Shown here in pieces: positions 59,803-60,615 of a DNA stretch of 64,000 bases. The position numbers were made by a program, and so were the translations under genes. Origin of the DNA: a bacterium. GTDB taxonomy: Bacteria > Krumholzibacteriota > Krumholzibacteriia > LZORAL124-64-63. Where the stretch lies: the NCBI GenBank assembly GCA_016703265.1, contig JADJCK010000009.1, forward strand, positions 226,570-290,569. Reading direction: 5' to 3'. Each line of letters begins with the position of its first letter. Positions within the stretch are counted from its first letter, which is position 1. The notes under the pieces were generated by a model that worked only from the letters and a program-made list of their open reading frames with translations, did no database searches and was not told the origin of the DNA.

Positions 59803-60033
59803 ATTGCGCCGGCGCAATCGTCAGGGAAGACTGGGCCAAGCTGTCGAAGGAGCGAGGGTCGAGGGAGCGATGCCCGATGGAGCGGTGGTCGATGGAGCGG
59901 CGATTGACGGAGCCAGGTTCGATGGAGCGAGATTCGACGGAGCAGGGATCGACGGAGCGAATGGCCCGGGTTGCGCCGGCGCATGAATAGTGAAAAATGG
60001 CGATCGGCGCCGGCGACTTGCGCCGGCGCAAGT
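59803..60033. repeat. GC-rich palindrome family (A)TTGCGCCGGCGCAA(T) x3, plus seven tandem 15-bp TCGATGGAGCG-type repeats between them
   Basis: 16-bp perfect palindrome 59803-59818. 13 of 14 copy at 59971-59983. 18-bp perfect palindrome ACTTGCGCCGGCGCAAGT at 60016-60033. 15-bp tandem units 59852-59958. Confidence 0.6.
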
Positions 60034-60077
60034 GCCCACATGGGACGGGGCACCGCCTCACCGCCGGAGTGGAGCCG

Positions 60078-60533
60078 ATGCTGAAGGATGTCTTCGACCC
60101 CAAGGTCACCGACGAGCTCATCACCCGCATCCAGTCGCTGACGCCGGAATCGCGCGGCCTCTGGGGCCGGATGACCGTGGGCCAGATGCTGGCGCATTGC
60201 TGCGTGCCCTACGAGATGGTCTACGATGGCAACCACCCGCGGCCGGCCGCGCCGTTGCGCCTGCTCCTGAAGCTGTTCGTCAAGCCGTCATGCATCAACG
60301 AGAAGCCCTACCGCCACAACAGTCCCACCGGTCGTGGCTTCGTGGTCCAGGACACGCGGAACTTCGCCGCGGAGCGCGATCGCCTGGTCTCCCACCTCAG
60401 ACGCACGCAGCAGTTGGGCGGCAGTCATTTCGACGGCCTGGAGTCACTGTCCTTCGGCCCGTTGACGAGGCAGCAGTGGAGCAACCTGTTCTACAAGCAC
60501 CTGGACCATCATCTGGGGCAGTTCGGGGTTTGA
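60078..60533 (+). CDS. DUF1569 (DinB/YfiT-like) family protein
   Basis: MLKDVFDPKVTDELITRIQSLTPESRGLWGRMTVGQMLAHC N-terminal signature. GGAG ribosome-binding site. Confidence 0.6.
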   Translation: MLKDVFDPKVTDELITRIQSLTPESRGLWGRMTVGQMLAHCCVPYEMVYDGNHPRPAAPLRLLLKLFVKPSCINEKPYRHNSPTGRGFVVQDTRNFAAERDRLVSHLRRTQQLGGSHFDGLESLSFGPLTRQQWSNLFYKHLDHHLGQFGV

Positions 60534-60541
60534 CGGAACCG

Positions 60542-60615
60542 TGGCAGCACTTGCGTCTGGGCAGCACTTGCGTCTGGGCAGCACTTGCGTCTGGGCAGCA
60601 CTTGCGCCGGCGCAA
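60542..60615. repeat. four tandem 17-bp repeats GGGCAGCACTTGCGTCT ending in a fourth copy of the TTGCGCCGGCGCAA palindrome
   Basis: Units at 60542, 60559, 60576 and 60593. Palindrome core 60602-60615. Lies between convergent genes. Confidence 0.6.

Follow-up and report, generated by a model that had tools for sequence, protein, structure and literature searches.

Organization of the Locus

The locus described here occupies about 0.8 kb of a 64,000-nucleotide (nt) stretch of the bacterial contig JADJCK010000009.1 (assembly GCA_016703265.1), referred to below as the window, and begins just past the end of a gene for a sigma-54-dependent activator (bacterial enhancer-binding protein; bEBP). Four copies of a GC-rich palindrome (P1 to P4) are distributed over it. 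An array of 15-nt units lies between P1 and P2, a gene for a DUF1569/DinB-like protein lies between P3 and P4, and an array of 17-bp units runs into P4; genes for an 87-amino acid (aa) protein and an AbiEii-like nucleotidyltransferase follow on the other strand (Table 1).

A preliminary description of this DNA had listed the four palindromes, with a perfect 16-mer (P1) and a perfect 18-mer (P3) among them, and all were found where it placed them. It had also counted seven 15-bp and four 17-bp repeats. Both arrays are present; the first comprises eight units by register (59843–59960, 7.9 copies and 75% matches by Tandem Repeats Finder; TRF), and the second 3.8 identical copies by TRF. A palindrome half-site had been assigned to the repeat units: the 17-bp units do contain CACTTGCG, and the 15-bp units (NUCGANGGAGCGRNN) do not. 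The placement of the elements between convergent and divergent genes holds for the convergent DUF1569 and 87-aa genes and fails for the activator and DUF1569 genes, which run in the same direction. Absent from that list was a partial duplicate of a palindrome arm that abuts P3 (TCGGCGCCGGCGA), and the 15-bp array had been passed over as an object different from the 17-bp array, namely a conserved and apparently selected module.

Orthologous loci were found via homologues of the activator, whose protein identity to the window copy is 98% in L082 (from the Joint Genome Institute; JGI), 88% in L083, 78% in L205, 77% in L084, 70% in L206/L207, 69% in L208, and 66% in L209. L084 belongs to GCA_016712675.1, a 4.7-Mb metagenome-assembled genome (MAG) of which 21 kb was examined.

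Table 1. Features of the locus, with the remaining palindrome copies of the window (positions are window coordinates)
Feature	Position	Strand	Remarks
Sigma-54-dependent activator (bEBP) gene	58243-59796	+	Pfam Sigma54_activat, E=6.7e-64; orthologues 64-98% identical
P1, ATTGCGCCGGCGCAAT	59803-59818		Perfect 16-mer palindrome; 7 nt past the activator stop codon
Small hairpin GUC-AGGGAA-GAC with GGA loop	59820-59831	+	GUC/GAC stem and GGA-containing loop in the window, L082, L083, L084, L205, and L206
Inner helix, 5' arm UGGGCCA	59832-59838	+	Pairs with 59962-59968
Array of eight 15-nt units, consensus N-UCG-A-N-GGA-G-CG-R-NN	59843-59962	+	Units assigned by register
Inner helix, 3' arm UGGCCCG	59962-59968	+	
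P2, perfect 12-mer TGCGCCGGCGCA (59972-59983) inside GGTTGCGCCGGCGCATGA	59970-59984		Degenerate family copy
Partial duplicate of palindrome arm and centre, TCGGCGCCGGCGA	60004-60016		Abuts P3; kept in L082 and L083
P3, ACTTGCGCCGGCGCAAGT	60016-60033		Perfect 18-mer with the family consensus sequence; DUF1569 follows 45 nt downstream
DUF1569/DinB-like gene	60078-60533	+	Pfam DUF1569, E=1.3e-6
17-bp tandem array, GGCAGCACTTGCGTCTG x3.8	60543-60606		Duplicated left arm of P4; TRF, units 100% identical
P4, perfect 14-mer TTGCGCCGGCGCAA (60602-60615); family copy ACTTGCGCCGGCGCAACT	60600-60617		Between the convergent DUF1569 and 87-aa genes
87-aa gene	60635-60898	-	Gene calls in L001 and L082; convergent with DUF1569
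AbiEii-like nucleotidyltransferase gene	60895-61443	-	Pfam AbiEii, E=1e-7; 4-bp overlap with the 87-aa gene
Family copy outside the locus	10180-10197		Directly past the stop codon of a minus-strand gene (10196-10840)
Family copy in a 761-aa open reading frame (32414-34699, minus strand)	33609-33626		Translated LAPAQL

A Conserved Repeat Module Follows the Activator Gene

In the window, L082, L083, L084, L205, and L206/L207, a module of constant layout lies directly 3' of the activator stop codon. It consists, in order, of P1, a small GUC-A(N)GGAN-GAC hairpin, a 7-nt arm, a variable number of 15-nt units, the complementary arm, and P2. The number of units is 8 in the window, 9 in L082, 7 in L083, 3 in L084, 5 in L205, and 2 in L206/L207. 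L208 keeps the layout with decayed units and has lost the GGA of the small-hairpin loop, and the module is absent from L209. The existence of this conserved GGA-loop module after the activator gene is the new point of the present analysis.

The units themselves are strongly constrained. Among 34 units (26 of them distinct), positions G4, A5, G7, G8, A9, and C11 are invariant, and U2 and C3 are each retained in 32. All but one of the 34 have A or G at position 13, which pairs with U2 as U-A or U.G. Position 6 is free, and variation is limited to positions 1, 6, and 12–15. Because this pattern spans loci whose activators are 70% identical, recent duplication alone does not account for it. The unit motif was found nowhere else among 204 loci, and a covariance model of the module retrieved no other full copy in ~680 kb, where it matched only palindrome doublets. 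A likeness of the array units to the Shine-Dalgarno region of the activator gene itself was not conserved in the orthologues. The P1–array–P2 module is probably a selected element. It is independent of DUF1569, since L084, L206, and L208 carry it without that gene, and the special link between the repeats and DUF1569 in the preliminary description is lost with the same observation.

One explanation for such a period is that the array encodes a repeat peptide, either (x-D/E-G-A-x)n on the plus strand or (A-P-S-x-x)n on the minus strand. Fifteen base pairs are five codons, the variable positions 6, 12, and 15 would be wobble positions, and there is a weak Pentapeptide_3 match (E=0.003) that at 18.2 bits falls below the curated cut-off of 27. 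However, the would-be glycine codon is GGA in all 34 units, whereas GGA makes up 8% of the glycine codons in window genes, and the minus-strand frame would need GCT, which accounts for 4.5% of alanine codons there. Start and stop codons are not conserved, the 3' end of the L084 array is out of frame owing to a 1-nt indel, and L206 has just two units. The coding interpretation was ruled out on codon usage and frame, and a repeat peptide is extremely improbable. The codon bias, the unconserved frame, and the sub-cut-off Pfam match together indicate that the constraint on the array acts on nucleotides.

Predicted Base Pairing and Strand of the Module

Consensus folding with RNAalifold gave a 15-bp outer helix formed by P1 and P2 and a 7-bp inner helix, with P1:P2 pairing in all six modules. 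Counted on the structure string over the six sequences, 98.5% of the cells in the alignment are paired. Two inner-helix pairs show compensatory changes, one from G-C to A-U (in two sequences) and the other from A-U to C-G (in three). Every one-sided change in the helices produces a G.U pair on the plus strand and would produce A.C on the minus strand, which favors an RNA read from the plus strand. When the sequences were folded singly, the P1:P2 helix again closed the element in all six modules. Each unit is predicted to be able to form a 3-bp UCG/CGR stem around the hexaloop A-N-GGA-G, and the predicted unpaired probability of the GGA is 0.65–0.83 in four of the six modules, compared with ~0.33 for other nucleotides. 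The chance that the module acts as a plus-strand RNA appears somewhat better than even.

The Palindrome Belongs to a Dispersed Family

The 64-kb window has 6 copies of the 12-mer core of the palindrome, where shuffled sequence would give 0.03, and four of the six fall within the 0.8 kb of the locus. The examined 21 kb of L084 hold eight copies, of which four match the 18-mer exactly; L209 lacks the palindrome. The exact 18-mer was found on at least 120 metagenome contigs, which come from several metagenome projects judging by record names alone. The palindrome (consensus ACTTGCGCCGGCGCAAGT) is therefore a dispersed family, like the repetitive extragenic palindromes (REPs), in an uncultured high-GC lineage, as one of the alternatives in the preliminary description had proposed. 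As judged by protein similarity, the closest named relatives of this lineage appear to be Candidatus Krumholzibacteria, the source of the nearest named homologues (59–71% identity) of two window proteins. The GlgC of a further MAG, GCA_016706575.1, is 99% identical to that of the window; this MAG and GCA_016712675.1 probably derive from activated-sludge sampling.

Gene calls on 607 kb of such metagenome DNA, which were crude, placed 66% of 188 core copies outside genes, with genes covering 69% of the bases. By the same calls, 98 of the 188 adjoin the 3' end of a gene and 27 adjoin 5' ends only. Bases outside the 18-mer are not conserved, and complementarity beyond it is modest (44% at the next position, compared with 32% expected). 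These two properties identify the fixed 18-mer itself as what is copied or recognized. Doublets are common, with spacings of 30, 34–35, and 60–66 bp, and they match the module covariance model on both strands. Three consecutive palindromes with a 34- to 35-bp period (an 18-bp repeat and a variable spacer of ~16 bp) occur at 2917–2998 of L203 and 893–975 of L161; these mini-arrays are regular but by size are not CRISPR arrays.

A search of the literature for the palindrome sequence returned no match apart from an unrelated paper on eukaryotic NRF1. P1 to P4 were also considered as intrinsic (Rho-independent) terminators. No T run follows any of them on either strand, and a terminator function was ruled out for these GC-rich hairpins without a U tract.

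Copies inside genes show a preferred frame. Among 28 copies in confident long open reading frames (ORFs), 21 are read in one phase, as L-A-P-A-Q(V), and doublets within ORFs are spaced by multiples of 3 (30, 60, and 66 bp). The count includes copies in the activator linker: the copy preceding the helix-turn-helix (HTH) region is translated G-L-A-P-A-Q-V in L084 (11239–11256) and L206 (11335–11352), and the window has a degenerate copy there (59611–59628), read as T-S-A-P-A-T. A gene for a DUF222-like HNH endonuclease was seen on 9 of 120 palindrome-bearing contigs (L112, 364–1464; L176, 1789–2523; L099, L104, L108, L113, L114, L186, and L189). Wherever both ends could be read (L104, L112, L114, and L176), the HNH domain is bracketed by an in-frame 18-mer on each side, 264–267 bp apart. 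Conceivably, the 18-bp palindrome is a selfish element of minimal size: it would insert in frame (LAPAQV), and the HNH nuclease encoded by the bracketed gene would spread it. We regard this as a long shot, and as less likely than the GGA-sponge interpretation of the 15-nt array given below.

The family resembles the REP, REPIN (REP doublet forming a hairpin), and BIME (bacterial interspersed mosaic element) repeats of Enterobacteria and Pseudomonas in several respects. Those too are short GC-rich palindromes, dispersed in many copies mainly just past gene 3' ends, that frequently form doublets able to pair with each other and are stable at orthologous sites of related genomes. In contrast to REPs, which are imperfect, 20–40 bp long, and carry a GTAG-type head, the present palindrome is a perfect 18-mer of fixed sequence, and a sizeable minority of its copies fall within ORFs, where one frame (LAPAQV) is preferred. 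No REP-associated tyrosine transposase (RAYT) turned up, although no search was aimed at Y1 transposases; instead of a RAYT gene, the DUF222-like HNH nuclease gene with two in-frame copies recurs. Occurrence both between genes and in frame within them is shared with the Rickettsia palindromic elements (RPEs) and cyanobacterial HIP1. RPEs are 100–150 bp and HIP1 is 8 bp long, whereas the element here measures 18 bp, or six codons, with a strong frame preference (21 of 28, LAPAQ).

The preliminary description had also proposed binding sites for a dimeric regulator. In a broader form of this explanation, the repeats are DNA sites, with a dimeric regulator on the palindromes or the sigma-54 activator on the array as an enhancer or titration site. 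Perfect palindromes are typical operators of dimeric HTH proteins, the array is invariably beside the activator gene, and enhancer-binding proteins are known to be able to act at a distance. Yet on at least 120 contigs the identical 18-mer stands by unrelated genes, mostly at their 3' ends, and it occurs within ORFs as well. A dimeric regulator specific to this locus cannot account for that distribution. A pattern scan of the window found a single sigma-54 promoter-like site (TGGCCCGAGGCTTGC, 58087–58101, minus strand), which is near neither the array nor the palindromes. The genes flanking the module in L084 and L206 are convergent and leave no downstream target for activation, and the compensatory and G.U-only changes fit base pairing rather than a protein–DNA code. 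A role for the repeats as DNA binding sites is highly improbable.

The promoter-like site lies 39 nt upstream of sbp, the sulfate-binding protein gene, and is kept in L082, L205, L206, L208, and L209. A sulfate ATP-binding cassette (ABC) transporter operon is divergent from the activator gene in the window and at every orthologous locus, and the activator most likely controls this operon from the predicted site. In L209, the locus that has neither module nor palindromes, a gene for a small RRM-domain RNA-binding protein (5475–5744) is a neighbor of the sulfate ABC operon.

The 17-bp Array Is a Duplicated Palindrome Arm

The 17-bp unit is the left arm of P4 plus 9 nt, and the last unit continues into the full palindrome. 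The window and L082 can be compared over 5.9 kb at 94–100% identity. L082 has one extra 15-nt unit (+15 bp) and two fewer 17-bp units (-34 bp), and the only other indels are three single-base gaps; its copy of P4 carries a point mutation. A contig from the short-read Logan assemblies (L001, SRR11674038) matches the window at every one of the 387 nt compared and ends inside the 17-bp array (L001 1149–1186 corresponds to window 60578–60615). The 17-bp repeat breaks short-read assembly.

Arm duplications with periods of 12–21 bp also stand beside other palindromes, as seen in L128, L135, L136, L176, L180, L184, and L200, among others, when 185 copies were examined. The duplicate at 60004–60016 and P3 are arranged as in the L136 arm array. 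Because arm duplications adjoin other copies, P3 included, slippage of a half-site is a general property of the family. The earlier suggestion that the 17-bp units arose by slipped-strand amplification of a half-site is upheld by these duplications and by the difference of exactly two units in L082. The 17-bp array is a recent, probably neutral tandem duplication of the P4 left arm and a recurring by-product of the palindrome family, and it shows no sign of function. A sigma-54 promoter within the 17-bp unit (TGGCAGCACTTGC) was considered and rejected: its GG-to-GC spacing is 8 rather than 10, and the pattern scan gave no match there.

The same process might account for both arrays, which would then be neutral debris of the variable-number tandem repeat (VNTR) type, spawned where REP-like palindromes stall or misalign replication and without function as DNA or RNA. 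Near-identical strains differ by whole units in both arrays, duplications beside family palindromes are common (and include repeats not derived from an arm in L187), the number of 15-nt units ranges from 2 to 9 without apparent constraint, and the array is decaying in L208. The 15-nt array nevertheless departs from this expectation. Its core UCGA-N-GGA-GC is intact where activators are only 70–78% identical and neutral intergenic DNA should be unalignable, its variation is restricted to positions 1, 6, and 12–15, the hairpin and inner helix flanking it are conserved with compensatory changes, and its unit lacks the palindrome arm that true arm duplications contain. For the two arrays together, a neutral origin is unlikely, although it retains appreciable weight.

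Bacterial VNTRs such as the mycobacterial interspersed repetitive units (MIRUs) are likewise intergenic tandem repeats of 15–17 bp that differ by whole units between close strains. Unlike those, the 17-bp array derives from a single arm of a neighboring palindrome, and the 15-nt array keeps an invariant motif over deep divergence, as neutral VNTRs do not. A separate tandem repeat lies elsewhere in the window, at 23904–24487, where ~4.6 copies of a 126-bp (42-codon) unit with 74–80% matching occur in an 850-aa ORF (22766–25318, minus strand).

DUF1569 Is Part of a Variable Cargo

The region between P2 and a peptidyl-prolyl isomerase (PPIase) gene differs between loci. In the window and L082 it holds DUF1569, the AbiEii-like pair (87-aa and nucleotidyltransferase genes), and a hypothetical gene; in L084 it holds an unrelated 240-aa gene, in L208 a pair encoding an extracytoplasmic function (ECF) sigma factor and its anti-sigma factor, and in L206 nothing. 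DUF1569 is absent from L084, L206, and L208, and so is the AbiEii-like pair. An inversion is ruled out, since the hypothetical gene that adjoins the PPIase gene in the window bears no relation to the gene at that place in L084. GC content falls to 0.62 at 60001–62000, from 0.69–0.71 on either side, over DUF1569, the AbiEii-like pair, and the start of the hypothetical gene, and this dip is consistent with acquired DNA. The center of DUF1569 (60185–60484) is 78–84% identical between the window and L082, whose flanks are 95–100% identical, a pattern suggestive of diversifying selection or allelic exchange. DUF1569 and the AbiEii-like pair belong to the accessory cargo of a variable region, and DUF1569 is not functionally tied to the repeats.

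Comparison with more distant relatives added little. An exact-protein look-up of DUF1569 in its 151-aa and 178-aa forms gave no match, and relatives in GTDB genomes are at most 65% identical, mostly from other phyla, and uninformative for synteny. Their loci are devoid of the palindrome, save for one chance copy.

A further explanation treats the palindromes as recombination or insertion sites that bound mobile cassettes, with P3 and P4 delimiting a DUF1569 cassette in the manner of integron attC sites or dif modules. DUF1569 is flanked by P3 and P4 as 21-nt inverted and direct repeats, what lies between P2 and the PPIase gene is lineage-specific, and palindromes enclose a DUF4143 ATPase gene and, separately, a HicAB pair in L084, at a place occupied by one palindrome in L208. 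The divergent center of DUF1569 between nearly identical flanks and the lower GC at 60–62 kb would also fit. These features make a role of the palindrome in cassette exchange possible. Against them, no recombinase or integrase is nearby, 18 bp is short for the core site of a tyrosine recombinase, and the far side of the AbiEii pair has no palindrome. Many ordinary chromosomal genes, too, have palindromes at their flanks, and in L180 one intergenic region after another contains them, so that bracketing is expected from their density alone. Overall, we consider it very unlikely that the palindromes are sites of this kind.

A Candidate GGA Decoy RNA

The protein CsrA and its relative RsmE recognize the element A(N)GGA in a loop, and the sponge RNAs CsrB and RsmZ hold many such sites at a density similar to that of the module. 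ANGGA occurs 10 times per 150 nt in the module, compared with a mean of 0.34 in the window and 3 in the next-best segment, and GGA is invariant in 34 of 34 units. These counts, with the predicted loops, point to a possible mode of action. The module would be made as plus-strand RNA, either as the 3' untranslated region (UTR) of the activator mRNA or as a fragment processed from it. This RNA would bind many copies of a protein that recognizes GGA loops, most plausibly one of CsrA/Rsm type, and the binding would either serve as a decoy or control the activator mRNA. The number of units, and with it the number of sites, would change by slippage. The analysis shows the dispersal of the family, the conservation of the module, the changes in unit number, the covariation, and the invariant motif; transcription of the module, the strand used, and the protein partner are what we infer from sequence.

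The locus as a whole can then be read as a composite of a palindrome family, a GGA-loop RNA module, a neutral 17-bp array, and accessory DUF1569/AbiEii cargo, an interpretation that we favor at slightly below even confidence. Its parts are held at different strengths. That the partner of the module is a CsrA-type protein is a tentative and somewhat unlikely identification. In its most specific form, the 15-nt array might be a CsrB/RsmZ-type sponge RNA, or act as a decoy for some other GGA-loop-binding protein, in a candidate phylum outside the Proteobacteria; it would derive from the 3' UTR of the activator beside a sulfate-uptake operon, and unit slippage between the two REP-like palindromes would adjust its binding capacity (2–9 sites) on a short evolutionary timescale. 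This version is speculative, and we think it rather unlikely.

CsrA is described as recognizing "GGA-containing hairpin loops," it is encoded by ~30% of bacterial genomes, and its reported homologues include those of Krumholzibacteriota and Eisenbacteria (PMC13443453). Several observations weigh against an RNA decoy of this type. A tblastn search found no csrA gene in the window or the fetched loci, which cover only small parts of the genomes, and no sigma-70-type promoter or U-tract terminator was found at the module by a scan that may not cover the promoter types of this phylum. Rfam returned no relevant match at the gathering score or at E<=10. The covariation sample is six sequences from approximately four lineages. 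The 3-bp unit stems are marginal, with one mismatch in 9 of the 26 distinct units, and the GGA is predicted to be less exposed in L205 and L206 (0.38–0.52). Because family palindromes promote duplications nearby, the formation of an array requires no function. Finally, known CsrA sponges are independent, strongly expressed small RNAs (sRNAs), and one joined to a 3' UTR would be out of the ordinary.

The likeness to CsrB/CsrC and RsmX/Y/Z is accordingly one of design. Like these, the module has many closely spaced A-N-GGA motifs (here one per 15 nt) in small hairpin loops or unpaired stretches, the number of motifs varies among relatives, and a stable terminal helix closes the whole. It differs in having neither sequence nor Rfam similarity to them, and its units are near-perfect tandem repeats. 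Rather than being a gene in its own right, under a promoter of its own, it stands 7 nt past a protein-coding gene, and it lacks a U-tract terminator. Its host belongs to a candidate phylum outside the Proteobacteria, and its partner protein is a proposal.

Implications

The palindrome family offers a clean, sequence-defined case of an element that seeds tandem duplications of its own arms, breaks short-read assemblies, and enters coding regions in a preferred frame, and knowledge of it helps in the annotation of activated-sludge and sediment MAGs. Should all the functional interpretations fail, the locus is an ordinary REP-plus-VNTR hotspot. To our knowledge, CsrA antagonists outside the Gammaproteobacteria are poorly known. 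If the GGA array does titrate a protein, sponge regulation of the Csr/Rsm type would extend to an uncultured lineage of the Fibrobacterota–Chlorobiota–Bacteroidota (FCB) group, in the form of a sponge whose number of binding sites differs between strains.

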